Positions 1 through 53,100 of a stretch of DNA of 64,000 nucleotides are shown here, piece by piece. Location of the stretch: assembly GCA_000091205.1 (NCBI GenBank), contig AP006485.2. One strand, written 5' to 3'. Positions within the stretch are counted from its first letter, which is position 1, and each line of letters starts with the position of its first letter. The notes beneath the pieces were generated by a model. The model did no database searches. It had not been told where the DNA came from and saw only the letters and a program-made list of their open reading frames with translations. The stretch comes from Cyanidioschyzon merolae (lineage: Eukaryota). Made by a program: the position numbers and the translations under genes.

Positions 1-1096
1 TCAGAATGGACTTGTGCTCGACCAGCATCACTTGGCCATCGAAGGTCGTTGTCGCTTCAACGGGATCGTTCTCTGCACAGAGCACCTGGCCCGAATGAAT
101 ATCGTCTTCCTCGACGCCTTTCACAAGCAGCTTGACGTTGTCTCCGGGCTCAGCGAGCGGCACCTCCTCGGCATCCATTGTGATGCTCGTGACATGCACG
201 ACAAGTCGCGGTGGCATGAGCAGTAGCCGATCACCGCTGCGAATCGTACCGGCTTCGACTCGGCCTAGGATACAAACGCCCATATCTCGAAATCTGTCCA
301 CGACAGTCATGCGCACCGGCATATCCAGCGGCCGCGGTGGTAGTTTCAGTGCATCGAGCACTTGGAGCAGCGATCCGCCTTTGTACCATGCACACGTGCT
401 TGGATGAACCGGTTCGCGCAAATTCTCACCTGTGAAGCCGCTGACAGGTACCCAGCTGACCTCCTGCGGCCGATATCCAATCTGCTTCAGGAAGGGTGCC
501 AGTTTGTCGCATATCTCCCGAAAGCGCTCCTCGCTCCACTGCACGGTGGGTTCATCCATCTTGTTGATGACGACGATGAGTTGTCGCACACCAGCCGTTT
601 TTGCGAGCATAGCGTGCTCGCGGGTCTGTCCGCCTCGTTCGAAGCCGGCCTCGAACTCTCCCTTGCGGGCCGAAATCACCAGTATAGCCACATCAGCTTG
701 TCCGGTGCCTGAGATCATCGCCGGCACATAGGCCTTGTGGCCAGGCGCATCAATAATCGTGATATGTTTCGTTGCGGTTCGGAATGAAGCTACGCCATAA
801 TCCGTGGTTTTTCCTTTGCTTCGTTCCTGTTCGGTGAGATCGAGCGCCCAAGCGAACTTCCATGACTCGCGACCTTTGCTCTTCGCCTCCTTTTCGTATT
901 TCTCCAACGTGCGCTCGTCGAGGTTGCCAGTCAGGTAGAGCAGGTGGCCGCACAGTGTCGACTTGCCGGCGTCTACGTGTCCGATGAACACAATGTTCAA
1001 GTTTCGGACCCGTTCTGGTGACTCGGATCCTGGTCCTCTGCCGTTGTCGTCGAGGTGCAGCTCCTGCACACGCTCCGCAACTTGAGACGCTGCCAT
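1..1096 (-). CDS. eRF3/HBS1-family translational GTPase (start codon at 1094-1096; about 365 codons in window, 3' part runs past the window start)
   Basis: Minus-strand frame is open from the ATG at 1096 to position 1. G1 is NIVFIGHVDAGKSTLCGHLL, G3 is IIDAPGHKAY, G4 is VVINKMDEP, and ISARKGEFEAGFERGGQTREHAMLAKTAGV closely matches eRF3. The 6-frame track misses it because no stop lies inside the window. Confidence 0.85.
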   Translation of the reverse strand, partial: MAASQVAERVQELHLDDNGRGPGSESPERVRNLNIVFIGHVDAGKSTLCGHLLYLTGNLDERTLEKYEKEAKSKGRESWKFAWALDLTEQERSKGKTTDYGVASFRTATKHITIIDAPGHKAYVPAMISGTGQADVAILVISARKGEFEAGFERGGQTREHAMLAKTAGVRQLIVVINKMDEPTVQWSEERFREICDKLAPFLKQIGYRPQEVSWVPVSGFTGENLREPVHPSTCAWYKGGSLLQVLDALKLPPRPLDMPVRMTVVDRFRDMGVCILGRVEAGTIRSGDRLLLMPPRLVVHVTSITMDAEEVPLAEPGDNVKLLVKGVEEDDIHSGQVLCAENDPVEATTTFDGQVMLVEHKSIL

Positions 1097-1663
1097 AGAT
1101 AGTGCCTTTGAACAAAGCTGCTCTAGTCGAACGGTCAAAATGAGAATCCCGAGCGCTATCCGTACGAGCGCTGCTCTGTGGTCCGACCACGTTCTCTTCC
1201 TTCGCTGCACGGAAGAGTGTCCGGGCACGACGCGAAGCGAGGAATGCTTAAACTTCTAAGCACGGAATTTTCGTCTATTGTAAATAGAAGAGTATTTTAT
1301 AGAGCTACAATTGCGATGTGTAGTCTGGGTTTGAACGCAAAAGCACCGCTCACAGGTGATGCCCTGAGCGAGCCAGCAAGCTCTGATGCGAGCGTCTTCT
1401 TGTTGCTCGGGTCCTCAAAGCCTTGTACTACACTAAGCGTACGTACCAAGCAGTTAGTTCTATACCTGGAGTTCCACAGCAGCGCGAAGCGCTAACAAGA
1501 CCCTGCCGGACAAGAAAGTCGCCTTAATAGGTCGCTGGACAAAGATTGTCGCCGTGGCGAGGCCGCGCGGGTACGCACTCCAACTCCCAACAAAAGCTTT
1601 TATGCCAGTCTCTGTTCAACGGCTGTGTTGCTGCGCTTAAGCCCTAACAGGGATCACTGACTC

Positions 1664-3115
1664 GTGATCCTGGGTAGACTCCGTTCAAGACGTACCTTGC
1701 CGTGGGGTATGTTTGTGGGACTTCTCACAAGACGCAATCTACGACCCTTGCAGTCACTCGCCCGGAAACAAAGCCAGTTGGACACGTTTCGGAGCCGCAT
1801 GTCTTATTCGACTTTCTCTGGAGTGCCTGAGGCACCAAAGGACCCCATCTTAGGTCTGAATGAGCTTTTCCGTGAGGACCCTTCACCCCTTAAAGTAAAT
1901 CTGGGCGTCGGTGCGTACCGCACGGAAGAGAACAGGCCATACGTGCTCGGTGTTGTGAAACGAGTCGAACAAGAACTAGCAAATAATCCGAATACCCTGC
2001 ACGAGTATTTGCCGATCGAAGGCTTACCTGAATTTCGCTCCCTGTCAGCTCGCCTCGTATTTGGGGAGCGCTCACCGGCGCTCAAAGAGCAGCGAGTTGT
2101 CTCGCTACAAAGCCTGTCGGGAACAGGCTCGCTTCGCCTGGTCGCAGAGTTCCTCAGCAAGTTTTACCAGCGCGGCGCAGTCTGTTATCTGCCGCGCCCG
2201 ACCTGGGGGAACCACTGGAACATATTCCCAGCGGCGGGCATAAAGTGCCGCGAGTACCGGTATTACTCAGACGAGACCCATGAGGTCGACATCATCGGTC
2301 TCCTGGACGACCTAACTGCTGCACCGTCGGGCTCAATCGTGCTCCTTCACGCGTGTGCACATAATCCGACGGGAGCAGACCCTTCCATGACACAGTGGCA
2401 AGAGATCTTGGACGTCATCCGAAAGAAACAACATTTTCCGTTATTTGACTGCGCTTACCAAGGCTTCGCCTCGGGCTCTTTTGAGCGCGATGCGGCAGCT
2501 GTTCGCTTGTTTGAACGCGCTACAGTACCGGCTTCCGAAGCGGATGGTGCCAGAGAGCGACCCATGGAGATGGCGGTGACGCAGTCGTTTGCGAAAAATA
2601 TGGGACTTTACGGAGAGCGCGTCGGCGCAGCTCATATTGTCTGTGCTGCTCCGGCAGTAACGCAAGCCGTGCTCAGCCAAATGAAGCAGATAGCGCGCGG
2701 GCTCTATTCGAGTCCACCGGCACATGGTGCGACGATAGCAGCGAGAATTCTGAAAGATCGTGCGCTTTTTGCGGAATGGGAAACCGAAGTGCATGTGATG
2801 AGTAGTCGTATTCTACGCATGCGTCGTGAGCTCTTTGAGGCGCTGCATGAAAACAAAACGCCCGGAAATTGGGAGCATATTCTCTCCCAAATCGGCATGT
2901 TCAGTTTCCTGGGGCTGAGTGCGGAACAATGCCTTTATCTCCGGGAAAAGTACCATATATATATGACGACGAATGGGAGAATATCAATGGCCGGTCTCAC
3001 TTCAGACAAGGTACAGTACCTAGCGGATGCTATCAGGGATGCAGTCGTGCGTGAGGCCGAAAAGTTTGAGCATCAATCCGGCATTCAAGCTGCGCTAAAC
3101 AGCGGTAAGATATAA
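1664..3115 (+). CDS. Aspartate aminotransferase (class I PLP aminotransferase); likely start at M46 (1799); the 45-aa Arg-rich N-terminal extension may be a mitochondrial presequence
   Basis: GVGAYRTEENRPYVLGVVKRVEQEL is present. The PLP-lysine motif reads SFAKNMGLYGERVG and SSPPAHGA is present. There is an insertion near ERATVPASEADGARERPMEMA and a C-terminal extension. Confidence 0.85.
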   Translation: MILGRLRSRRTLPWGMFVGLLTRRNLRPLQSLARKQSQLDTFRSRMSYSTFSGVPEAPKDPILGLNELFREDPSPLKVNLGVGAYRTEENRPYVLGVVKRVEQELANNPNTLHEYLPIEGLPEFRSLSARLVFGERSPALKEQRVVSLQSLSGTGSLRLVAEFLSKFYQRGAVCYLPRPTWGNHWNIFPAAGIKCREYRYYSDETHEVDIIGLLDDLTAAPSGSIVLLHACAHNPTGADPSMTQWQEILDVIRKKQHFPLFDCAYQGFASGSFERDAAAVRLFERATVPASEADGARERPMEMAVTQSFAKNMGLYGERVGAAHIVCAAPAVTQAVLSQMKQIARGLYSSPPAHGATIAARILKDRALFAEWETEVHVMSSRILRMRRELFEALHENKTPGNWEHILSQIGMFSFLGLSAEQCLYLREKYHIYMTTNGRISMAGLTSDKVQYLADAIRDAVVREAEKFEHQSGIQAALNSGKI

Positions 3116-3654
3116 GAGATAAATTTTGGCGGAGTACACACTGGTTTGGTGTTTTGCCACACGGCAACGGAACGAAGCACCGTTCCCGTCACGTCCAGCT
3201 AGACCGATCATCAGGTGCCGTGGAGCCATGATTCGTGAACGGATGCGTCGGTTTTGGTTGCCAGCGTCTACAGCAAAGGCGCGTAACGACGCGAGCGAGA
3301 GCGTCGACCCTGCATCCCGTGTGTGCACGGGACGTCGCGCGCATCTCAGGTGCCCTGTGGCAGCGAGTACCATGTAGTCAACCCCGAGGACTTGCTCCAT
3401 AGATCCTAGCCGGTAACGAATACTGCAGTTAGCGCCTTGCGTGGACCACAGCTCGCGTCTGGGAGAAAAAATCTTTCATGAAAGGTGGTCACAGAAACTA
3501 GACGCTGGTGAGCTTTCTGAATAGTCCACGCCTTTCTTTCATAGAATAGATGCTTCCAGAGAAGCGAATGACTTCTTTTGCTTGCATGCCACCAACAGAG
3601 TTCAATGGATTTTTCGTATGTTTGCAGTGAATCATTACCAACACCAGCGAAAGC

Positions 3655-3730: not shown

Positions 3731-4554
3731 TGCACCTTCATTGCAACCAAGGGTGCCCATTGCCTCCAACAGAGCTGCCATTTCTTGCACAGCATGCGTG
3801 ACGCGCATGCGTGGCGGCGCAGCGCTGGCGGATCAGTTGCACGCATGCGATGCGCCATATCGTCGTCAGGGCCCTACATCTCCATCATGGACAAAAAGGT
3901 AAAGCGATACAGTCCAACACCTCCGTCAAGAACAAAAAAGAACGTAAGAATGTGCTGAGCGTTGATGGACGCTCGGTCCGATACCGATGACAATCACGAT
4001 ATCAGGGATCGATGGTCAATGGAAACCTTTTGACATCAGAAAAAAATTGCCTCATCGCCGATTGCGGTGTCGATCGACATCCACTTGTCTTTTTTTTCAA
4101 GATATATACATTTATGTCTAGATAGAAAGTGGCGTTCAGCGGCCGCGTAGCAGGGCGTGCACGCGCGCGCCGGCGCATCCACTCCCGTCGCAGCGATGCA
4201 TCGACGCTGCGGCGCGATGGACGGCATCGCTCGAGAAGCGTCAGTTAAGCGCCGGCTAAGTCCACTGGGCGCTCTGGACCTGAACGCTTCTATGGTCTTT
4301 GTGCCGATCACATCGGTTCAAGAGGCAAAGCATATTTTTCGTCATAGAAATAGCAGATCAACGAGTCAACTTTGTGCTTGTCGGTTCGCCTTGGCTCGGG
4401 CTTTCGTGTCTACGCAAGATAAAACGTGCTTTGTACCTGGTAGACCGTGTGTGCTCAAGGAAAAGTCAGCGCACACCGGCACTCTGAGACGCTCTCGGTT
4501 ACAGCGGGGGTTCTGTTGCGCTCAGGTCGAAGCAACAACGGTACATTCTGATTC

Positions 4555-23644: not shown

Positions 23645-24255
23645 ATGGGGATACACGCTGAGTTTCGCACTCCGGTATACCTAAAATAAGATTGCCTTTT
23701 TGTAGTGGTTTGCTTTTCTTACAGGGTTACACGCTGAGTTTCGCACTCCGGTATACCTGCAATAAGATTGCCTTTTTGTAGTGGTTTGCTTTCCTTACAG
23801 GGATACACGCTGAGTTTCGCACTCCGGTATACCTGCAATAAGATTGCCTTTTTGTAGTGGTTTGCTTTCCTTACAGGGATACACGCTGAGTTTCGCACTC
23901 CGGTATACCTGCAATAAGATTGCCTTTTTGTAGTGGTTTGCTTTCCTTACAGGGATACACGCTGAGTTTCGCACTCCGGTATACCTACAATAAGATTGCC
24001 TTTTTGTAGTGGTTTGCTTTCCTTACAGGGATACACGCTGAGTTTCGCACTCCGGTATACCTGGAATAAGATTGCCTTTTTGTAGTGGTTTGCTTTCCTT
24101 ACAGGGATACACGCTGAGTTTCGCACTCCGGTATACCTGCCATAAGATTGCCTTTTTGTAATGGTTTGCTTTCCTTACAGGGATACACGCTGAGTTTCGC
24201 ACTCCGGTATACCTGGAATAAGATTGCCTTTTTGTACTGGTTTGCTTTCCTTAAA
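23645..24255. repeat. Tandem minisatellite, 76-bp unit x about 8
   Basis: The unit ggatacacgctgagtttcgcactccggtatacctNNNataagattgcctttttgtagtggtttgctttccttacag repeats with period 76 (anchors at 23653, 23729, 23805...). Variation is concentrated at one trinucleotide (aaa/gca/aca/gga/gcc). Confidence 0.9.
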
Positions 24256-24963
24256 GTTGTTCAATGAAAATAGCGTATGATATGCATTCGGGAAAGGTCG
24301 GGAAAAGCGTTTTGTGACGGCAATGGTCGTGTGCGGAAAACGGTCGTACATAGGCAAGTCAGTTCCTACTTCTCCAGAAGGTGCATGAACCGCACTTGTC
24401 GATGTGCATCCATGATAGAACTTGTCGAAATCTATCAACACGAATACTCTTTTGATCACTCCAATTTAGTCCAAACGTTCCCCCAGAAATACGAGGAAAG
24501 AAGCTCCAGGATGTCAAGTGTTCATGCGGTTTAAAAGGTCGGTGCTGAAGCGACTCGGATGGACGGAACAAGAGATCGCTTTCCTTCCACCGTTGAATAT
24601 ACACAATCGATTTCGTAGTGAAACGCGAATACTTTTGACAGAAAGCACAGGTAATCGTCTGATTTGATGATTCTTAATTCGACATGAATTTAGAGACCTG
24701 TACATGGCTGCTCAAAGCGGCGTTAACCATATTTCAAAGGCAAGCAACGAGTGATCATGGTGACAACATGACCCTAAATGGTAATGCAGCCGCGCGGTCC
24801 ATGAAGTATCACGAAAAAAAGCACAGGATGATTTACCATCTTATCATTCGTCGAAGCGCACTTTGAGTCTTGTCCTTGTCATGTGTTATGCTCCTGCTCT
24901 TACAGAGCGCCACTTTTTATCTTACAGAAATGGTCGAGGAGTCCTCCTCTAGGATTGGCGTTT

Positions 24964-25646
24964 TCTACGCTCCCTTCGTGCGAAACGGTGACGCACACCC
25001 TACTGGAATCGATCGCTCGGATGACTCCAGTTCTAGTACCGAATCCTTTCCCAAGCAAACAGAAGAGGCGGGAGCCCCGCAAGCAGCGCACCACATCATA
25101 CGGTACCCTGCTGCTCTGGAATGCCGTCTCGCCGATGAGCGCGAAGAGACAAGCATTTGTCTTTCGAATGCAATGGACCATTCGAAGCGACAAGTGACGT
25201 GAGCAATGGTCATGAGTTTGTGAACGAGTCGTCCATGGACGACGTCAAGGTTCTGGTATTGCTGGATAATCTAGGGACACAAATCGCTTCGCCCCTAGGG
25301 TGCCGTGAGAGAGCAACACTGAAGCGTTGAAGAGTGCACGATTAACGCGTGCTTCACGTACGGAGCTTTAAAGCGTGGGAGCTTGAACCAGTGACTCGGA
25401 TCATTATATCGAATATTCTACGAATCTTTATTCGATTGCGTCGTGAATCCCCCCGATCCCTGTAACGTAACAAATTCCAGCGGTACAGCGTCAAAGGAGG
25501 CATTCCGCGAAAAAATGGCGACCGATCGACAGCAAACTACTCATGAATCTACACGCTCCTGCCTGCTGCATTTCGCATGTCGAGACTGCGGAACTGCAAG
25601 TTCGGATAAATGGAAAAACAGGAACATAGAAAGCAGTAAAGCACTG
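24964..25646 (+). repeat. Repeat family R1, copy B (truncated, about 0.68 kb)
   Basis: Aligns to copy A 10931-11613 at near identity. The left boundary is degenerate. Confidence 0.8.
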
Positions 25647-33266: not shown

Positions 33267-33848
33267 TCAGCTTCGCGGGTCTCTGCTCTTCAGCACCACC
33301 CATCGTCCGATACTCATGGCGGTGTTTAAGTCTCTGTTCAAGAATTTCATAGGTTTATTGCCGCTGGGTGGTTTCAGCAATGCAAGGATTCCTAGTGGTC
33401 GCACGCTATGCGCTATTAGAGTCTCGTCGACGTCCTGTCGGGGAAACATCTTTTCTCGACTATCCCCCTTCTTCTTCTTCTCTTCAATGGTCATGAATCA
33501 TGGATAGTATGGAGGAAAGGAAAGCAGCTCTATCCCGATAGATTCGGCAAAAGCCTGGACGCATGGGGAATGGTGAGATGCAACGTTGTCCGGTAGAAGG
33601 ACGCCGCCATTCGTCAGATGATTCTTCAGTGATTCGATAACGTGGTTGGTGCTCTTGTATGAGCCTTCTCTACGACCCCAAGCTGAAGCCGCCAAATGAA
33701 TCCACTGCAGCTGGAACAGATGATGGTGTCCTCGTTCTCTTCGAATTCGATCCTGAATTCCACGGACGCCCTCTATGCCAGTACGCGTGAAAGCTCCGAC
33801 AATTTCGTCTGAAAAAAAAAAGTCCCTTGCACTCAGAAAAGGATTCAA
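33267..33848 (-). pseudogene. Degraded DDE_3 (Tc1/mariner/IS630-like) transposase C-terminal remnant, frameshifted
   Basis: GGVLLPDNVASHHSPCVQAFAESIGIELLSFPPYYP matches the DDE_3 pattern ...DNAPIH.S..V...L...GI..L.WP..SPDLNPIE. In the next frame, FLNRDLNTAMSIGRWVVLK matches SPDLNPIENLWGILK. Confidence 0.55.
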
Positions 33849-34658
33849 AATCCTTGTGCATCATACCAATCGCTGAGTTCCAGGAACGAATTCGTTACTT
33901 TTTCGGTAGAAAATTGCTATGCATGAACTGGAACTATTTTTGCGAATGTATACCGCTGTTTTCAGGACAACCCGAACAAGCCATTAAGCAACAGAGACGC
34001 CTCTGGTGGCTAGGATCATTGCGTTTGCTTTCCATAGGGTCATCAACGCGCTTTTTTCTACCACAGTCCATAAGCAATCTCTAAATATATCGGGTTTTGG
34101 CACGGAATGCATATGCTTCCTTCTTTCAATATGTATGAACCATCTGAGTTCTAACGTATGACTGACCTGAAGGACGCATGCAATGCTCCCCGCACTTTTC
34201 AGTAAAGAATCTCTACCCTACATTCAATTCGTCTACGATATATGCAAAAAATGCCTAGTGATTCCGACCTCCCGCTACATACCGCGAAAACGCATTCCAA
34301 GAAATTCAGCAAGGGTGCAACACAATTGAGTTGAAAGACTATAAGGTGCAACGGGTGCACGCCCGGATACCCAGCGCCGCGGCACGGCCGATGCCTTACG
34401 TTGAGGCATTGCCTGCTGCGCAGTGCAACCTTATAGTTCGAGACTTCTGGTACTAGCTTTTTGCAGAAACTTGTCTGGGATACCATACACAAACAGATAA
34501 ACTTGGGACACGATTGCACCCGGCTGCGCGTCGTGCAGGAGCTCGAAAACGTGGTTGCAACGCCACCGCACGCTGAACCTGCGGAGCGTTCTTGGCGAAC
34601 AGGACGCGACTGGGAGTCCCATTTACTGTTGGCTGGATCAACGTGACTCACGCTTATC

Positions 34659-43507: not shown

Positions 43508-44674
43508 TTGAGAGTGTGGGCGTTGTCTGATGCAATGCAGACCGGGGGTTTCCCCAGCCCTAGTGTGCAACGCGTTCCAAAAGACGTGTTCTGCTTGATG
43601 GATACTGAGCGTTTTGATCAGCGGCCGACTTGTTGCATCGTACGCGAGTCCCGATGCCAGAGCGGAGGCAGCCTTTTCCGCCAGCCTGTGTCAATGGAGA
43701 TGTACATTCGCGGGCTCGCGTCTGCTGACCTTGATTCCAGTTTAGTGCGCTTTCGGCATGAGTCTGTGAGCAATTCATCACCGGACGAGATCAAGTGTTT
43801 CCCCTGCCTATCCAGCGCTGCGAGTGATTGCGTGCGCATGTTGCCTCGCGATAGAACAATTGGCAACTTGAAGAACGTCTGCTTCGAGCTTGCGACATGG
43901 AAGGGAAACGCAAGAATCGGGGCCTGTACATATGAATGGGTTTTCATTTTGATTACTGTACGAAGCCTTGCACGAGGGCATCGCTCATCTTCATCATGAT
44001 AGCAATCACGTAACGTTTCCCAGTGACACAGCGTCTAAGGAGCCACTCGGAAAAATCGGTCTAGCATCGTAGAACTAGGCGTGAATCCGTAAATCCTAAC
44101 TGCCGCACTTGGATTGTCAAGGCTGTCTGTGTATAAAAATAAGGTCCGAACATCAACGAAAAGCAGGTGTAGAACGAGCAGTCCCGTTTTCTCGTTTTAC
44201 CGGACCCGCGCGCATGGCGGATGTGCTTCTGCAGCGTGTTTGCGTTCGGTGCCGTTGGCGCGCGTTGCGAGGCTTGCGTTCTTATTTTATGAAAGCTGGT
44301 GGTTCTCAGGTTATTGTGGATACGTTTGTGGTGGCTTGTCTCGGTCTTGCGGGAGCCATTATTGGTCTGGAGTACGCTTTGGACGGTGACGAAGCCGCCT
44401 ACAGCGAACTCACCAACGGCAAGGACGAGGTTGCCGGCGATGCCGTTCGGGCACACGTACGTGCAACGTGGCGCAGCGCTGCACTTTCGCGGGTAGCGCA
44501 AGTGCCTGGCGGGACCTGAAACTGGTTTTTGACGAGCACGTCGCACCGGAGCTACCCAAGATGTTCCGTTTGATCGGACAGCAGTGGCTGACCCCGAAAA
44601 CTGCCTGGTTGTGGTCCGTGGTAAGCAGCTGGTGGGCAATCGCCTGAAAGGATGCGTGGTTCGTGCAGCGAGGC

Positions 44675-44678
44675 AAAA
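44675..44678 (-). terminator. Pol III terminator (T4 run) 3 nt downstream of the tRNA discriminator base
   Basis: Minus-strand context reads ...CTGCCGC A GC TTTT GCC. Confidence 0.5.
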
Positions 44679-44680
44679 GC

Positions 44681-44803
44681 TGCGGCAGGTGAGACTCGAA
44701 CTCACGACCTTAGGATAGCTTTCTTGGGCTCGTGTTATGAGACCTACGCGCTGTGGCACTGAAACTGAACTGGACAAAGTTTAACCAACTGCGCTACTGC
44801 CGC
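44681..44803 (-). tRNA. tRNA-Met (anticodon CAU; elongator-like) with a 19-nt anticodon-loop intron at 37/38 and a 30-nt insertion in the D-loop
   Basis: The minus strand reads GCGGCAG TA GCGC AGTTGGTTA[AACTTTGTCCAGTTCAGTTTCAGTGCCACA]GCGC G TAGGT CTCATA[ACACGAGCCCAAGAAAGCT]A TCCTA AGGTC GTGAG TTCGAGT CTCAC CTGCCGC A. It has a 7-bp acceptor stem, a 4-bp D stem, a CU-CAU-AA anticodon loop and a canonical T arm. Its architecture matches human elongator tRNA-Met (TAGCGCAG...GCGCG.CAGTCTCATAA...AGGTCGTGAGTTCGA.CCTCAC), including U31-U39. Confidence 0.65.
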
Positions 44804-46750
44804 TGATGGGAAATGCTTGCGATAATCTAGATATAAAGCCCATTGCGCCCAGGTTCGTTGCACCGACGGCGCGTGCGTTTGTTCGTGCTCGATTCTGTGC
44901 GCTAGGTTTCACCAACCGTTTCAGCATGATGTCCCTTGTATGGTGCAACTTGATTGAATTCGCACCACTTTGGACAGGTTCGGCCTCGGTGCGCACCTTG
45001 TTGCGCAGATGGGATGCTTGCTTCATGACGTCAGTGCTATGATCCCCTGTCGTGAGGTACAGATGCGCATGAAGCGATAGCGCCCTTTTGCGGGTGCACG
45101 GCTGGTGTGCCGGAATGTGCACTCATCTGGTCAGCGTAAATTTATCATGCGGCATGCTTGCACCCAAGTCGACGTATACACGGACGAGCACGACCTTGCG
45201 TCAGTTATTTTTGGGGTACGGAGTAGGGCGCTGCATGATCGTGTAGACGAACCGGGGGATTCCCGATTGCGCCATGGTTATCGGTATCCGCGAAAGCGTT
45301 CATCATTCTGCACGGGACCGCTGCGTTTCAGGAGCCAATGCCGATAACTTCTTTTCGGAATTAGGGTTTGTTCGTCCAATTTTCCTGGTGCCGAGCGCCT
45401 GCCGTGTGCGCCCACTAGGTTGCCACTAGCGTCGATATGGTTATCGCATGGCAACGGAGCGGCTTTTCCATACCATGATTGAAGAAAGCTCGAGGCATCA
45501 GCCTGCGTGTACACGCCCGCGGGCTCGCGGAACGCGTCTCTCACGGACGACTCGGATATGCACTGGCACCGGAGCTGCTGTATTTGCAGCTGCATACCAA
45601 ATCGATGCTCCTTCGCCTACGAGCTGGTGCGTCACATAAAAAGCAAACGAAATTCCTAGGTACCGTCATATCTTCGGGACGGCACAGCGTTGCAGGTTGG
45701 TCGAGCAGTCGCCCAAACTTTGGTTTGAGGCGACGCGGGTCGACGGACAACATAATGGTAACGCCCGACATGCGGCGGTTCCTGGAGGGTTTCGCCGTTT
45801 TCCTGGACGGCGTAACAGGGAGCACTCGTGATTCAAGCTGACACCGAGACAGCGGCCCCAGGCGGTCACTTTTAGACGTCCATGGTAAGTGCCATAAAAC
45901 AGTGCGAGGCTCTCACGCAGATCCGTGTCGATGATGCTACCAGATACGTTTGCTCATCAGCTTGGCCGCTCTTTCCGACGTTTCCGTGGCCGTATCCACC
46001 TATTCGATGTCCATTGGCAAGCACATTTGGTCATAGAGCACTCGCTAGCAAACAGCATAGCACAGCACTGCAGATCCTCGGCAGTTCCTGGTGCACCGCT
46101 CACACCGGTGACGCATCGCGAGTGCGCACCGCATCCTGTGCCTCGTGCTGAACTAGGTCCGTTTGATCGCATGGCATTCGCGAAAGACGCATGCAGATGG
46201 TGTGTATCGCGTTTGGCAGAGGGCTATGTTATTCAAACCAGTGAACCTGAAACAGTCTGTCATTGAGATGTTTATCGACAAACGCGTGGATGCGGCATCC
46301 TATCGTTCGCGGAGCGTCCTGTCATAGTGCCAGCGAAGAGTCGGAACTCTTACGCGAGCAGAGCTGCATTCGTTTTATTTTGCAAGCAGCCCCGGACCGT
46401 GCAGCTGCTTGCATTCTTCTGCAGATTTACATCCATCGAGGAGCGTCAAATCGTTCCGGCTGAAGCGCACAGAAACGTCGCGCGAAAGCATGTATCCGAG
46501 GATGTCGGGTGACTCCAACGGCGAACAACATCCCAGCCATTGCCGCCTACGATACGATTTGGGTAAGGCGCTTATGGAAACAGGTCGGGCCGATGCAGCC
46601 CATTTATGCACAGGCACTTGCTCTTCGTTGTATTGACCTATAGTGCAGTCCACTGCTATTGCAATGTTCATGTACACATGCTCTAGATTATCTACCGAGA
46701 TCATGCGGGTAGGCCGCAGCGTAGTCTCCAGAAAGCTCATGGAAACAGTT

Positions 46751-47875
46751 TCATGGATGAATAGTATCTTTGAATTCAAAGAACGAGTCATGCATGCGAA
46801 TGAAAGAGTACTCCTCGCATGACCCACAACACCAGTATAAATTAGGTTCTTTGTGAAAGATAGCGAACCCGGCGTGCATAAAACCTCGGAAAAACTCATC
46901 CAATTCTGGGATAGAGGCGAAACCCGCGTGCACTTCGATAAGGACTTGATTCACGTGCCGCAGCGCGTGCCAGGTTCTCAAGGCATATTGCTCTTCAGAG
47001 CTGAGTTCACGTTGGCTCCGTCCTTGGCGAAGGAGCTTGTCGGCTGCCCGGAACGCTCCCAAGAAAGAGGTGAACTCACCACCCTCGATATCGATCTTGA
47101 GCACCTCGACGACGTTTGGCAGCTCCAGGTGACCCAATCCAGACATGATCTCCGCCAGCGAATTGTTGCTCTCAGCCGGGCCAAGCGGCCGGCGAAAAAA
47201 ACGAACGCGTTCCAGAAAGCTCTCGGAGTGCATCGCAGATGGTGGCGATGATGTTGGGTCAAAGACGAAAAAATCGCAGTCCGGCAAGCGTTCATGAAGC
47301 TTCGTTTCGAAACTGAAATCGTCGTTGCTACCAAAACTGTAAACAATGCAGCGATACGGGAGCCTGAGCTGCTCACGAAACAGCCGTCCCCGGTTCAGGA
47401 TAGCAGGTGGGTCGCACACCCATTTGCCACCGTCTCCGTTGTTACCGATCCGTTCCTCTAAGGTACAGCCGATATCCGGTTCCCAGTTATTGTAGAAAAA
47501 AACCGACGGGTTTGGTTCGAGGGTAACGGTCTGGCGCTTTCGCTGACGTTGTGACCGAATCCTCCGTTGGGCCCAGAGCGCGTCCGACTCGCACCAGAAG
47601 CCGAGCGACTCTTTCAGTGCTCGCGTGTCCTTCGAAGTCACTGGTAGGGTCCGGTCCCAAATCTCCGTCAGGGTTTTCGCGTTGCGCAAAGAGCTCCCAC
47701 GACGAAGAGCCCTCGACACGGAGCGAACGCAGCTGTCATCCACGGCGGGAAGATCCGCGCGCTGGACACCACTAGAGCGTCCGTTGAGAACACTAGTAGC
47801 GCGGTATATTACGATAAGAGCATAAATAAGAAAAGTCAAAGCCCCTGAAGCGATGCACGGTTTTCGCCACGTCAT
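46751..47875 (-). CDS. FkbM-family (Methyltransf_21, METTL24-like) SAM-dependent methyltransferase, type II membrane topology; ORF opens at 48115, probable start is Met at 47875
   Basis: TM segment ALTFLIYALIVIY. Motif I-like CIVYSFGSNDDFSFE, and the family hallmark VLKIDIEGGEF. Confidence 0.65.
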   Translation of the reverse strand: MTWRKPCIASGALTFLIYALIVIYRATSVLNGRSSGVQRADLPAVDDSCVRSVSRALRRGSSLRNAKTLTEIWDRTLPVTSKDTRALKESLGFWCESDALWAQRRIRSQRQRKRQTVTLEPNPSVFFYNNWEPDIGCTLEERIGNNGDGGKWVCDPPAILNRGRLFREQLRLPYRCIVYSFGSNDDFSFETKLHERLPDCDFFVFDPTSSPPSAMHSESFLERVRFFRRPLGPAESNNSLAEIMSGLGHLELPNVVEVLKIDIEGGEFTSFLGAFRAADKLLRQGRSQRELSSEEQYALRTWHALRHVNQVLIEVHAGFASIPELDEFFRGFMHAGFAIFHKEPNLYWCCGSCEEYSFIRMHDSFFEFKDTIHP

Positions 47876-48024
47876 GCCGGCCACTGAAAACAAACGTCTT
47901 TCAAAAGAAAAACGTTGCCGCCAACGGTGTACAGTAGTGACGGGAAACGCGCCGTAAGCAAATCGTCTCCAGCTGAGGTGCAGACGCATCCCAGTCTTTT
48001 TCGACCGTCCACCTACTACGTCTT

Positions 48025-50149
48025 TCATTTTCTTCTCATATAATTCCACTTTGAGAGGTCGCCCCACAGGTTCTCTCGTGTCGAATCTGGAGGTCTTTTC
48101 TCCAGCACCGCACATCTCCTGATATTGATAGCGACATTAAAGTCTCGGTTCACAAACTCCATGCGTTTCTTGCCATCTTTGGTTGTACTTACTAATACAA
48201 GTAGCCCACGAACGTTCGCCCTCCTTTCCATTTGCTCCTCCGTCAGCGGTCCGTACTTTGCTATTTCGTCGGGGCTCCTCTGGCACTTTTCCATCTCGAT
48301 CCTTTGAAGTGTACAACACAGTTCATGGTGTGTATACGATGTTCGGAACTCATCTACAGGTATTGTAACTAACCGGTCTGCACACCCCTTGTACGTTCTT
48401 GTCGTTGGAGCTGGTGTACACTCTTTTTCAGACGCCTAGCGCCCTGCTCCGTATGCTACTACCAGCCTTTGACTTTCATCCTCTTTGAAGGCACTCAGCT
48501 GATTGAAAAAGTTCGCGAACGCACACTGCTTGCCAACGTATAGATTCATACGCAATCGAGACCACCGGGGCTTTGTATACTCTTTCCACAGTGCCTCCCA
48601 ATGACCAACGCGAACTTTCATGAACTCCCGAAAAGCTTGAAAGTCGGCTCCGCGGCTCGTCACCTCGCCCAAAGCTTCCAGGTGCTCTTTCATTCCTGCA
48701 TTCCATGTCTCGATTTCCTTCCACGCATTCTTTATACCGGATTCTCGATAGTATCTCGCTCTCGAGAACCTCAAAAGACGCATGTCTTTCTGAATGAAGT
48801 TGCCGTCTGGACCATCTTCCGCACGCCTGGGTACAGCGATGGCTGTGACATTCGTATTCCCAGGGTCCGCGCCCACGACAAAGTCGTTATACTTCCTTTT
48901 CTGTGTGGCACAATCCGCCTCCTTCTCATCTTCATACCTCGTCACGTCAACGACAACGTCGTCATCCTGCACTTCCTGTGTCGCAGGATCCGTCTCTTTG
49001 TTTTCTTCATGCTTCGTCATGGGCGAAGCCGAAGGCTCGATAGGACGATACGCCCTCAAGCGCTTGCAGTCTACACAAATGGATACTCCATCGGTTTCGA
49101 TCATCCCCGTGAATACCCTCTGCTTGCTAATTTTGAGACGTTTGAAACTGAAGATATTCTTCCAGTACGTCTCCCGGTTTTCACCGGAGAATTCCTCCCT
49201 GCTGGCATTGAACTCGGGACTGATCTACTTCATGATGCCGTAGACGACTCTGGAGCCGATATAAACAAAATGGGGCTGTATGTTCCATAACGGGATGACG
49301 TAGAAGCGCTTCACCATTAGGAAAGCCCTCGGTCTCTCGCGCTCTTCATTTTTTCCTCACTCAGCTTCATCTCCGTCTTGCGTTCGAGTTTTCGGTCCAG
49401 AAACACGAAATACCGCAGAATGAGGCGATAGTGTCTTTCCATATCTTTTTTCAACTCTGGTACCTTTTCTGCTGGATTCGCCAGCCCAAAAACTGCATGG
49501 TGCTCTTGTATTGCCGCACGGATTACAGAAGCTTCATTCGTGCTCCTGCGTGGCGCCTTCTTGTCACCAAATTCGACCTCATCTTCATGCTTACGATCAT
49601 TCGTGATGCCTTGAAAATCGCACATTTTCCATCGCGAGATAGACCCGGGTAGAGTGCAAACACGGCGCGTATCATGAAACGTTCGAGGTTCACTGTCAAA
49701 TGGTGTTTCAGGTCCGTGATTTACTTCATCGCCCCGTATATGTAGATATTTCCGTCACCGCTGTATCGATTACCCTCGAAGGGGAATTCCACGAAGATTT
49801 CGTGGAGAGCATGCACTAGCTCATTTTCCCTCCGCATACCCCCTGTACCAAGCATCAGTTGACGAATAAACGTCTTGTCGAAAAACTCGTCCGAAACCTC
49901 GACTCTTTCCATGTGCGTCACATCGCGATGCATCGCCCTCACCAAATGCATTAGCCCTGACGATGCGTTTATAATACTTTTGGAGTACGAATCGACACAT
50001 GGTCTCTGATAGCGTCTCGCAAATTTTGCTTGTACTGATCCTTGGTATGTCAAAGAAGACCAGCTTTCACCACCATCTCGTCGCACAGGTGTCTTTTTCG
50101 CCGCCTTCGACGTTGGACCTCCCCTTTCGGTCCTTTTTCTTCTCTTCAT
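48025..50149 (-). pseudogene. Fanzor/TnpB-like (OrfB_IS605 family) RuvC nuclease gene in four ORF pieces (50149-49721, 49625-49317, 49104-48436, 48294-48025), with an in-frame TAG at 48436-48438
   Basis: N-terminal NLS MKRRKRTERGGPTSKAAKKTPVRR. RuvC-I reads [20 protein letters not shown] (Asp at about 48865-48867). [19 protein letters not shown] and DRLVTIPVDEFRTSYTHH are colinear with ISDra2 TnpB (PKYYRST, QDFLHKLTTSLV, GRLVSKVSPYFPSSQLC). RuvC-III reads EFVNRDFNVAINIRRCAVL (Asp at about 48142-48144), against DRDENAALNIRREAL in ISDra2. The Zn-finger cysteines are degenerate. Local GC is about 50%, against about 60% for flanking genes. Confidence 0.6.
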
Positions 50150-53100
50150 TTTCTTCTGGACTCGGTACTGTTTTTTATTTTTTTCTGGCAGCCTGCGACA
50201 CTGGGCCTCCAGGATTATGTACTTGCTTTTTCATAACTTTGCTTTTTTAGTTTTTTTAAGAAGAAAGCCCTTTGAACGCTTCTGGTACACACTGCGAAAA
50301 AATTTGAGTAGACTTGTTTGAAGTTTGAAACACAAATGCAACCGAAAAACTGTACTTGGCTATGAACTCAACGAAAATACAACTTTTACATCAGAGCGAC
50401 ACGCTAGAGATCAAGATCACGTTTCCAGTCATCGTCGGCGATATGCGTCATGTCTCAAGCCTGTCTGATCTCCCAGCTGCGCTCGCTGTGCGCGATGCGT
50501 GCACCGCGCGAGACGCCTCACCGATCGATGAAGGACACGTGTCCGACACCCCGCCGTGGCACATGCGTGTTCGCATCGCACTGCAGCTGAAATAAAGTCT
50601 CGTAGATCGGAAACTCACGTGGAACGATCTCTTGCTATAGGCTATGTCGCTGATGCACATCGCAGTACGGACCTGACATACAAGGAGATGCAGGGGCCTG
50701 GCACGATTGCCCGCGATGCTTCTATCAAAGGCGTAGTCACTGTAGCACCTTACGCTTGTGCGAGTGAGGTATGCATCACCCTACTGAATAGGAGTTTCGT
50801 TCGTTTTATTGATCGTGAAAAAACTGTGTGCCGTAGTCTTCCCGACTACGGATATACGTTTATTCCCGTTTCTTGCAGTCCATTCCGCTCAGACGCTGGA
50901 ATGAGAAACTGGTTTGAATTGTGTTTCTATCCGGCGCCAGGCCAGCAAGTGTCGAGCAACCCACCGCAAATTCGTTCTGATCGATGGAATGTGCTTACGG
51001 CTCAATGATCCGAGAATTCACGACGAGTACCGACACCCGGGAAATCTGCCGCCATTGCGCACCAGCTCTGCGATTTCCACCAGTCACATCGCGTGCCTCA
51101 TCTCCGACATTCTGCTTTTCCGACGTTCCATTGTGCCCTGCGACTGCCGTGAGCGTTCGAAACAGCGCCCAAACCGCTGGATCGGGCGTAGCACAGAGAC
51201 CGACAGACATACCCCCTACTGGATTGGAGCCGGGAGCCATCGCTCACACGTAGCACTGCTCATTGCCGATCTCATCTGAATACTCCGTGACCACATTATA
51301 GTGATGGAAAGCGGCAACGTCTAAGGCCAGTGAAGAAGAACGTGCAACGAATAGGTCGCAAAACGTGATTCCCCGCAGCATGCGATGTTGGACGATTAGA
51401 CAATTCTCGGCGATGTATAAGTGACTACATAACCGAGTCGTAGCCAGGGCTAATAGTACCGACAGCCCCGCTGCTTTTTTTCTATGAACAGCAGTTTGCC
51501 CCCGTTTTGAATTATCCATATACAAATCTACCAAGTCTACCGAATAAAGTCTCATAAATTGAGACGGCAAAATGCCCCTGGTGGAAGAAACTTTCTCGTT
51601 GCAGTGCGAAATCGATCGTGCGCTGTTCAAGGTGCTGCAGCTACAAGTAGTAGCCTGCCATCTTCTTCGTTCACTCGTGTCGCTTCACCGCAATTTGTAT
51701 CAACCGTTCGAAAACCTCTCATCCAGCGGCTTCTTTGGAGGTACGTCATGGATATCATCCGGGCTGAAATACATGAAAGACGGGACGCTCATGTAGAGAG
51801 CTTTTGAAACTTGCTGTGGTCGGTGCAAGTCGTTCAAGGAACGGACTACGAGAGGGGTACCTCATACGTCTGCTGTCCGCACTATGTCTGGTCTGGACAA
51901 GTAAAGGCGTTTTGCTCCGAAGCCAGCCAGCCAGCCAGCCAGCATAAAGTCATCTCGCGACCTTTCACCGATCTACAATGTACAATCCACGTTTTGAATA
52001 CCTGTGCGAAAAACAAACAATTACACGTTTAGCGTGTTGATACATGTTCTTGCAAGTGCGCTGCTCTGAGTAAAAAGTCTCGTGATCGGTAGGAAGCATT
52101 CAAGATTTTTAACTTCTGAACCGCAACCTCGTGAGAAATTGCCGAGGCGCGGGTACGGCACCCTCCACTAGCGGGAATACGGTCTGTCTGGGAACCTCGT
52201 TCCTCTCTGGTACCGCAGGTGTGCAGTAGTGCATCCCGGATGCGTCCTGATCCTTCGCCCAAAAGACCTGCCGAGTGTGGCACTGCCGATCGCGAGTCTA
52301 AAACTGCTGTCGCTAAGAGCGATACGCAGGGTTCGCTCAGCAAGCACTGGTTGCCCCAGCAAGCGCTTGGGCTGGTATGCACGCCGCTGCAGTGACCCCA
52401 CGTTTGTCTCTTGGTGCTTTTCGTCATGGCTTTTATTCCGAATGATTGAGCATTCACTCAATACCCCAGAGAAAGACCGGGCGGATGGAGGATGATCGTG
52501 ATTGGCTCACGTCCTCCTCGCACGCATTGCTTCTTCGACAGACTCCCCTGACGCGAAATCTAGTCCATGGTCAGGAATCCCGTCTTGCTTGGCTGGTTGT
52601 ATTGATGACGCATCATGCGCATTGCGTGAACGCTTTCAGCTTGCGCTCACAAAGCCGACGGTCTGTAGCCAAATGATGAGGAGGCAGAATCGAGAACGGA
52701 ATACGCTGTCATTTTGGAGCGTCGCACGGAACGCATGCTCTCTATGAAGACCGCGATACTACGCAGGTATCTCGCTAATGATAGGTCGCGTACGAGGCGC
52801 TTGTGCATAGCTGCAACCTGTTACGTGTGCGGAAAGCTGAATGAATGCATCCAAGTGCCGTCTCTGGTTGCGTTTTTGAAAAGAGGGTCCAAACAAAGCC
52901 CCTGTTGTGTGGTCCCGCCCCGATGACTTTGCAAGCCATGCTGTCGGTAGATTCCCTTCGAAAAGAGCTCAACAGCTCGAGCACGATGCTTACGTATGTC
53001 CAGTGATTCAGAGGCGCCTTGCCAGCTGCTAGGAGCAATGCCGGTTGGATCCATGACACACGTCTCGCAGATGCGTCGAGAATGTTGAATGCCCGCAGGG

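Follow-up and report, generated by a model that had tools for sequence, protein, structure and literature searches.

Fanzor proteins of the Fanzor1 type are eukaryotic homologues of TnpB, and the described element closest to the locus studied here is CMe-1A of Cyanidioschyzon merolae. Bao and Jurka reported it in 2013 at about 150 copies, which are approximately 80% identical to their consensus (Mobile DNA 4:12; PMC3627910). The consensus is about 3-3.2 kb long (3169 bp in the supplement), has no terminal inverted repeats and encodes the CMe-1 protein of 734 amino acids (aa) in one exon. Target-site duplications were left undetermined, the first 635 bp at the 5' end correspond to another repeat, TE-N2_CMe, and the mechanism of transposition remained unclear in that publication (PMC3627910). 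For Fanzor proteins in general, the canonical RuvC-II Glu is replaced by Gly or Pro and an alternative conserved Glu is found downstream (PMC10530073). In SpuFz1, D383, E541 and D606 coordinate two magnesium ions (Saito et al., PMC10432273), and the guide RNA of Fanzor and TnpB originates from the 3' end of the element (PMC10432273; PMC10530073). Here we analyze a 64,000-nucleotide (nt) stretch of C. merolae DNA (contig AP006485.2 of assembly GCA_000091205.1), called the window below, in which an earlier reading of the letters had placed the remnant of a Fanzor/TnpB-like nuclease gene (the original prediction). We find, with a probability of about 95%, that this nuclease locus is one degenerate copy of CMe-1A, a multi-copy, non-autonomous element that bears a Fanzor1 gene. 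The family, its Fanzor1 protein and its copy number were all published in 2013, and the locus is an already catalogued genomic fossil.

The identification rests on direct comparison with the published element. In a blastn alignment the window matches the CMe-1A consensus with 83.1% identity at consensus positions 671-2193 and with 87.2% at 2117-3169. The published 734-aa CMe-1 protein is colinear throughout with the lesion-corrected translation of the window copy, and the host, C. merolae 10D, is of the species from which CMe-1A was described. The published element and the window copy also share the 3' terminus, the single-exon organization, the divergence level of about 80% and the high copy number. 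The window copy differs from the consensus in that it is without the first 640-670 bp and has a different 470-bp 5' module instead, contains one extra 75-bp unit, and carries 10 disabling lesions.

Relatives of the element are abundant outside the window. The stitched 698-aa translation found 49 of them (best E = 3.6e-276, 53-76% identity), so that the significance of the open reading frame (ORF) pieces is far above chance. Almost all of these relatives come from metagenomes of the Joint Genome Institute (JGI), and the sole tag that they carry is DUF8286 (PF26935), a domain for which we found no paper that mentions it. By a pattern scan of hot-spring metagenome contigs, at least 260 of the 600 pattern matches examined were confirmed as relatives, and 80 loci were returned; the locus counts given below rest on 80-81 fetched element loci. 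The metagenomic copies are 2.6-3.2 kb long and 74-87% identical in DNA alignment, and more than 70 of them align from window position 47877/47919 to 50462/50498; the identity of the fetched loci to the window over this span is 74-83%. Since the copy number, length and divergence of these relatives match those published (PMC3627910), they support the identity with CMe-1A. Elsewhere in the window, no second copy of the element was found.

Judged from profile and fold comparisons, the family is Fanzor1, in agreement with the prediction of a eukaryotic Fanzor/TnpB-type RuvC nuclease. An exhaustive profile search collected 3903 representatives at E <= 0.001, and a deep profile built from 117 of the best-scoring ones matched, in the PDB, the solved Fanzor1 proteins of Parasitella parasitica (9cf0, E = 3.3e-25), Spizellomyces punctatus (8gkh, 7.8e-20) and Guillardia theta (9cer, 7.6e-15). 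By residue count in the alignment, the catalytic columns of the family fall on residues 777, 935 and 1000 of the 8gkh chain, i.e., on D383, E541 and D606 of SpuFz1. The corresponding codons are retained in the window copy (Table 1). The Glu of VDEFRTS is an invariant column in the family alignment, and the canonical RuvC-II site reads VVAYGAG, i.e., it holds a glycine. For the catalytic triad, the predicted RuvC-I (GADPG) and RuvC-III (NRDFN) were correct, and the Glu had been misplaced in the WEAL region, the true one being found in PVDEFRTS. The family and the solved Fanzor1 proteins have in common a DPG-type RuvC-I Asp, a Gly at the canonical RuvC-II position, an N-R-D RuvC-III and a relocated Glu in a D-E-[FY]-[RK]-T-[ST] motif.

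The fold was tested on P0046, an intact relative that is 34% identical to the stitched protein, and not on the pseudogene. The AlphaFold2 model of P0046 has a mean predicted local distance difference test (pLDDT) score of 90.3, and its top seven PDB matches are all SpuFz, GtFz and PpFz (E 3e-17 to 3e-15). The likeness of the family to SpuFz1 (8GKH), PpFz1 (9CF0) and GtFz1 (9CER) covers the full length, with template modeling (TM) scores of 0.52-0.72, whereas the sequence identity to characterized Fanzor1 proteins is only 13-16%. Cas12 chains came next as the nearest non-Fanzor matches, and no TnpB chain was among the matches listed. A further likeness to characterized Fanzor1 may lie in the foldable, RNA-like stretch that closes the element and overlaps the end of its ORF; the CMe-1 clade differs from characterized Fanzor1 in being without the C4 zinc finger of the NUC/TNB domain and in having no associated transposase.

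Compared with ISDra2 TnpB (IS200/IS605), the family shows the ancestral architecture, that is, a transposon-encoded single RuvC nuclease with a guide RNA, putative in this family, from the right end. ISDra2 TnpB differs in its canonical RuvC-II Glu, its intact zinc finger, its length of about 400 aa, its prokaryotic host and its TnpA Y1 transposase partner, and the family profile gave no sequence match to it. By analogy with these homologues, an intact member would be a TnpB-derived Fanzor1 of about 734 aa that has a single RuvC active site and is guided by an omega-RNA. This omega-RNA would be transcribed from the 3' end of the element, with its guide part reading into the flanking DNA.

The window copy cannot make this nuclease. 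Lesions were called by a codon-by-codon walk against the 734-codon consensus coding sequence (CDS), in which the window copy encodes the same residue at 569 of 735 codons. Five nonsense mutations and five frameshifts were found (Table 1), and a TAG-to-TAC change has removed the ancestral stop at 47956-47954; because of these changes, the copy is unable to encode the protein. The prediction that the nuclease is not intact is therefore borne out, and the damage is heavier than it described. The four minus-strand ORF pieces and the peptides quoted from them are all present, as is the in-frame TAG at 48436-48438. A genetic code in which TAG is read as sense was considered for this TAG and rejected, since the consensus has Trp (TGG) there and TAA and TGA occur among the other stops of the copy.

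Both ends of the protein had been read in the wrong frame. The proposed N-terminal nuclear localization signal (NLS; MKRRKRTERGG...) does not hold, as it is read in a frame made by two +2 insertions, and the ancestral ATG lies 85 nt upstream. ORF piece 1 departs from the ancestral frame over its first ~48 residues; the genuine N-terminus (MEKEVEDPGGPVSPAAGKKRKT...KTKKQKREARRQR) is basic too. At the C-terminus, the -1 frameshift near 48070 makes a tail that ends in LWGDLSKWNYMRRK followed by a stop, and the ancestral tail GQPLKVELYEKK... is present in the consensus, P0006 and P0008. The number of 75-bp repeat units varies, with one in the consensus, two in the window copy and four to five in P0001 and P0008. 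The 25-aa repeat unit is acidic and lies directly before RuvC-I.

Decay is general in the family. ORFs of about 720-750 aa occur in only one or two of the 81 loci, and most copies are dead. Conservation among copies is 0.867, 0.893 and 0.806 at codon positions 1, 2 and 3, respectively. Because conservation differs by codon position, the family was once under protein selection, and much of the divergence arose during that time. This pattern agrees with the remark that coding capacity was maintained unusually long (PMC3627910).

The 3' end of the element can be placed closely. The published consensus ends at window position 47895; past this point, conservation runs for about 7 nt (GGCG-TTTGTTG) and then decays, as seen in 37 distinct copies. 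Because conservation decays ~7 nt after GGCG, we set the 3' boundary at ~47888. Two unrelated copies (L078 and L041) have about 18 nt past the consensus 3' end in common with window 47877-47895 and then diverge (TTTGTTTCCAG..GTGGCCGG against TTTGTTTTCAGTGGCCGG in the window). This extra likeness may be fortuitous, or the target sites may resemble one another; alternatively, one subfamily may have a right end that is slightly longer.

The last ~105 nt of the element form a foldable module. It consists of a long stem (GGGAGGCGUCU...AGACGUUUU), a GGCG-loop-CGCC hairpin, a nearly invariant ACUACUGUACAC stretch and a terminal hairpin of 10-12 bp, the last in two sequence variants (UUCGA/UCGAA and UUUUUC/GAAAGG). 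RNA folding compared with shuffled sequences gave z values of -1.6 to -3.1 in six copies, with -2.0 for the window copy. Conservation is 0.9-1.0 in the stems, against only 0.3-0.6 in the hairpin loop. In the proposed three helices, a structure derived by hand and alifold, 82% of cells pair, against 46-50% with the partner slid. An omega-RNA had been predicted at the 3' end of the nuclease gene. The location is reasonable, as the sole foldable conserved non-coding block lies there; the RNA itself is putative. The foldable end would fit an omega-RNA or the right end of the element, and the hairpins may just as well act at the DNA level, in transposition.

On the 5' side the picture is modular. 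The match to the consensus does not begin until position 671 (window 50470). Among the 80 fetched copies, ~35 start at consensus 625-675 and ~20 have the full TE-N2_CMe-type module. The alternative 5' module of the window copy is 75-85% identical to sequences in L005, L007, L031, L055/56, L068, L072, L076, L077 and L069. Homology with these copies stops at window 50923-50939, and some of them extend further. The window copy is thus a member of a 5'-variant CMe-1A subfamily. Because the left side is modular across copies, the true left end of the window copy is uncertain. The predicted span of 48025-50149 falls inside the element and is too short, since the element continues to ~47888 on the 3' side and as far as 50470 to 50939 on the 5' side. 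No recognizable target motif was found in the 5' flanks of window-type left ends. Only left ends of the TE-N2_CMe type (CGATGACAAAACG...) are preceded by T/C-rich flanks, e.g., ...TTTTTC, ...CTTTCTTT and ...TTTTTT, at loci L009, L010, L040, L052, L068, L077, L080 and others. This hints at a pyrimidine-rich target or a motif like a target-adjacent motif (TAM); the left end concerned is not in the window copy.

Several results weigh against our identification of the locus as a Fanzor1-bearing CMe-1A copy. In blastn, consensus positions 1-670, the TE-N2_CMe-like 5' module, have no match at the window locus. Pfam gave no TnpB or Fanzor domain over threshold on the ORF pieces, the stitched protein or the paralogues (for OrfB_Zn_ribbon, PF07282, the value on P0001 is E = 0.23 only). 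Searches of the PDB by phmmer with the stitched protein, and with an 8-sequence profile, returned nothing relevant. The homology is visible only by deep profile or fold. The C4 zinc finger (OrfB_Zn_ribbon/TNB) expected between the Glu and RuvC-III is missing, with no CxxC pair in the window copy or in the published consensus. In the 3' module, covariation is not significant (82% paired versus 81.6% in shuffles, with 56/500 shuffles as high), RNAalifold on the 3' 230 nt of 44 copies gave no consensus structure, and no Rfam family was matched at E <= 1 between 47500 and 51200. Double changes in the proposed helices show a borderline excess only. Column-wise covariation counts cannot capture the terminal hairpin, whose two variants differ in their pairing register.

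The original prediction had noticed that both CxxC pairs are absent and had taken this as decay of the copy. The absence is real, but it is not a matter of this copy. Of 60 relatives, 54 are devoid of CxxC in the interval from the catalytic Glu to the RuvC-III Asp and none has two such pairs, and the consensus is likewise without them. Bao and Jurka included a C4 zinc finger in their defining motif, yet classed CMe-1 as Fanzor1 (PMC3627910). The absence of the zinc finger is a trait of the whole CMe-1 clade, which departs from the 2013 motif. This zinc-finger-less clade nonetheless has a confident fold model and protein-level selection.

The frame changes could be read differently, as splice junctions in an intact or nearly intact Fanzor gene with very short spliceosomal introns, including one of 32 nt at 49693-49724. 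Introns do occur in Fanzor genes of other eukaryotes (PMC10530073), and the letters are present: GT (49724-49723) and AG (49694-49693) flank exactly 32 nt, the excision of which rejoins two open frames. However, these 32 nt are coding. They encode ITDLKHHLTV, which is colinear with LTNLKNHLTM of the published CMe-1 protein and with P0001, and they are homologous to the conserved residues K-Y-x-T-N-x-K-N-x-L in the consensus, P0001 and distant relatives. Both P0001 and the published protein read MKY(I/L)TNLKNHLT straight through the codon 170 site, and the GTAA of the supposed donor is a TAC-to-TAA nonsense mutation. Homology past the supposed acceptor stays in frame 0 for ~80 more nt and not in the frame that splicing would make; the frame change after the 32 nt is caused by a 1-nt deletion ~110 nt downstream (~49611). 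In addition, four further stops and four further frameshifts have no splice-like explanation, and the consensus gene was published as a single exon (734 aa, 1 exon; PMC3627910). The intron is refuted, and there is practically no chance that the gene is intact. It has also been proposed that the element and the adjoining methyltransferase gene belong to a single cassette, mobile or imported, in which the methyltransferase is a passenger. The two genes are arranged head to tail with a gap of only ~13-20 nt from the element end to the methyltransferase ATG, there is a second methyltransferase paralogue on another C. merolae chromosome, and at a second locus, L016, a CMe-1 copy lies directly upstream of a near-identical methyltransferase. 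Against this, the sequence beyond the common 3' end is unrelated in 78 of the 81 fetched loci, the published consensus ends before the methyltransferase, and the GC content of the gene (53.7%) is host-like. A methyltransferase is downstream of the element in only three of the 81 loci, two of which (L073 and L074) represent the window locus in other strains (98-99% identity). The third is L016, where the segment 4695-11465 compared with window 43711-50469 is 97-100% identical from 43711 to ~48980, 65-88% identical through the 5' half of the element, and unrelated beyond 50469. The high identity therefore runs from the 3' half of the element across the methyltransferase and on for at least 4 kb downstream of it, a pattern that points to duplication or gene conversion of host DNA already holding the element and not to transposition of a cassette; L016 was rejected as a mobile cassette accordingly. 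Its methyltransferase is a mosaic of the 10D paralogues BAM79085 and BAM82952, a sign that duplicated loci underwent gene conversion or that the metagenome assembly is chimeric. We regard a shared cassette as very improbable.

What the degenerate CMe-1A copy may still do is a separate matter. A copy that is dead as a protein gene could go on working as an RNA or regulatory element, either as an omega-RNA "ghost locus" that serves intact Fanzor copies in trans, its guide reaching into the start of the methyltransferase, or as promoter or 5' untranslated region (UTR) of the methyltransferase. Its 3' 105 nt keep the fold (z = -2.0) with the conserved blocks intact, omega-RNA-only ghost loci have been reported in S. 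punctatus (Saito et al., PMC10432273), and the spacing of the methyltransferase ATG, ~13-20 nt from the element end, would put the transcription start site (TSS) inside the element or at its edge. However, covariation in the 3' module is not significant, any recently dead copy is expected to show such a fold by descent, and a partner nuclease in 10D would be putative, since nearly all copies are dead. We therefore consider a retained role unlikely. A broader proposal is that the right-end RNA is still transcribed, whether as a ghost omega-RNA for the few intact CMe-1 nucleases, with its guide running into the first methyltransferase codons, or as methyltransferase promoter/5' UTR, and that CMe-1 is in addition an active zinc-finger-less Fanzor1 lineage; this we hold to be decidedly unlikely. 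As far as demonstrated function goes, the window copy of CMe-1A is a fossil.

Table 1. Features of the CMe-1A copy and its surroundings, in window coordinates.
Feature	Position	Strand	Basis or remark
CMe-1A copy, core	47888..50470	-	published consensus 671-3169 plus ~7 nt
Alternative 5' module, ~470 bp, in place of the TE-N2_CMe-like first ~640 bp	50471..50939	-	common to ~10 copies
Decayed Fanzor1 coding region	47954..50234	-	ancestral ATG 50234-50232; ancestral stop 47956-47954
Four ORF pieces	49721-50149, 49317-49625, 48436-49104, 48025-48294	-	predicted coordinates confirmed
RuvC-I Asp codon, D431 of consensus, GADPG, retained	48865..48867	-	aligns with SpuFz1 D383 (VVIDPN)
Relocated RuvC-II Glu codon, E603, VDEFRTS, retained	48349..48351	-	aligns with SpuFz1 E541 (LLDEYKTS)
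RuvC-III Asp codon, D672, NRDFN, retained	48142..48144	-	aligns with SpuFz1 D606 (NRDM)
Premature stop 1, codon 20, CGA to TAA	50175..50177	-	codon walk
Premature stop 2, codon 61, GGA to TGA	50050..50052	-	codon walk
Premature stop 3, codon 170, TAC to TAA	49721..49723	-	read as a GTAAAT splice donor in the original prediction
Premature stop 4, codon 336, GAG to TAG	49225..49227	-	codon walk
Premature stop 5, codon 574, TGG to TAG	48436..48438	-	AYGAGRW in consensus and P0001
Frameshift, +2 nt	50131..50132	-	alignment to consensus, codon walk
Frameshift, +2 nt	49999..50000	-	alignment to consensus, codon walk
Frameshift, -1 nt	~49611	-	true source of the first frame change of the original prediction
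Frameshift, -1 nt within A run	~49355	-	alignment to consensus, codon walk
Frameshift, -1 nt	~48070	-	makes the predicted C-terminal tail
75-bp (25-aa) tandem repeat, two units, extra unit 48891-48965	48875..49019	-	Tandem Repeats Finder: period 75, 1.9 copies
3'-terminal foldable module, putative right end and 3' part of omega-RNA scaffold	47888..47994	-	folding, conservation
Host methyltransferase gene BAM79085.1, outside the element	46751..47875	-	exact protein match

The neighboring gene itself is well defined. The downstream ORF has a Methyltransf_22 domain in Pfam (E = 9.2e-33) and a weak, sub-threshold match to FkbM (Methyltransf_21), so that its description as FkbM/METTL24-like was apt. 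The distance of 150 bp from the stop of the last ORF piece (48025) to the methyltransferase ATG (47875) was also given correctly, and this ATG is the annotated start of BAM79085.1. Because the ATG lies only ~13-20 nt beyond the 3' end of the element, the TSS of the methyltransferase is probably inside the element. Loss of the Fanzor stop together with a -1 frameshift has produced a 454-aa ORF (46751-48115, minus strand), in which the Fanzor tail runs into the methyltransferase. This fusion ORF has been called as a protein in metagenomes (P0088, P0093, P0098 and 425/432-aa variants); the 10D annotation starts correctly at 47875. Other genes in the window are exact matches to the 10D proteins BAM79079 (kinesin), BAM79081 (2-oxoglutarate/malate carrier) and BAM79074 (ascorbate peroxidase).

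The base composition is in part as predicted. The block at 48025-50149 has a GC content of 48.9%, close to the ~50% given for it, and 50150-50400 is indeed AT-rich (37.5% GC); the neighbors lie at 53.7-58% and not at ~60%. The GC content of the whole window is 54.9%, and its lowest-GC kilobase is at 24001-25000 (44.8%). Two further stretches of the window resemble sequences associated with the element. Window 3963-4037 weakly resembles consensus nt 1-76, the TE-N2_CMe-type left end (76% over 76 nt, E = 2e-7), and is possibly a fragment of a non-autonomous repeat of that type. Window 33481-34345, intergenic and of lower GC content, is a dispersed repeat of ~0.8 kb, with 65-68% identity to sequences adjoining Fanzor copies in L014, L033/L034 and L079/L081. 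In L079/L081 a repeat like it directly precedes a divergent Fanzor copy on the upstream side, so that it may represent a further 5' module, or else an element of its own.

The discovery value of this locus is small. This is because the element, its Fanzor1 protein and its copy number were published in 2013, and the biochemistry of Fanzor1 followed in 2023-2024. The case does illustrate that a highly diverged RuvC nuclease, unseen by Pfam, was recognized from sequence alone; in the same reading, mutations were mistaken for a splice site, and an NLS was read into an out-of-frame stretch. For specialists, an entire Fanzor1 clade without the C4 zinc finger may be of minor interest. With ~150 old copies in an almost intron-free, genetically tractable genome, C. 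merolae would be a convenient system for studying the role of transposase-less Fanzor1 elements.

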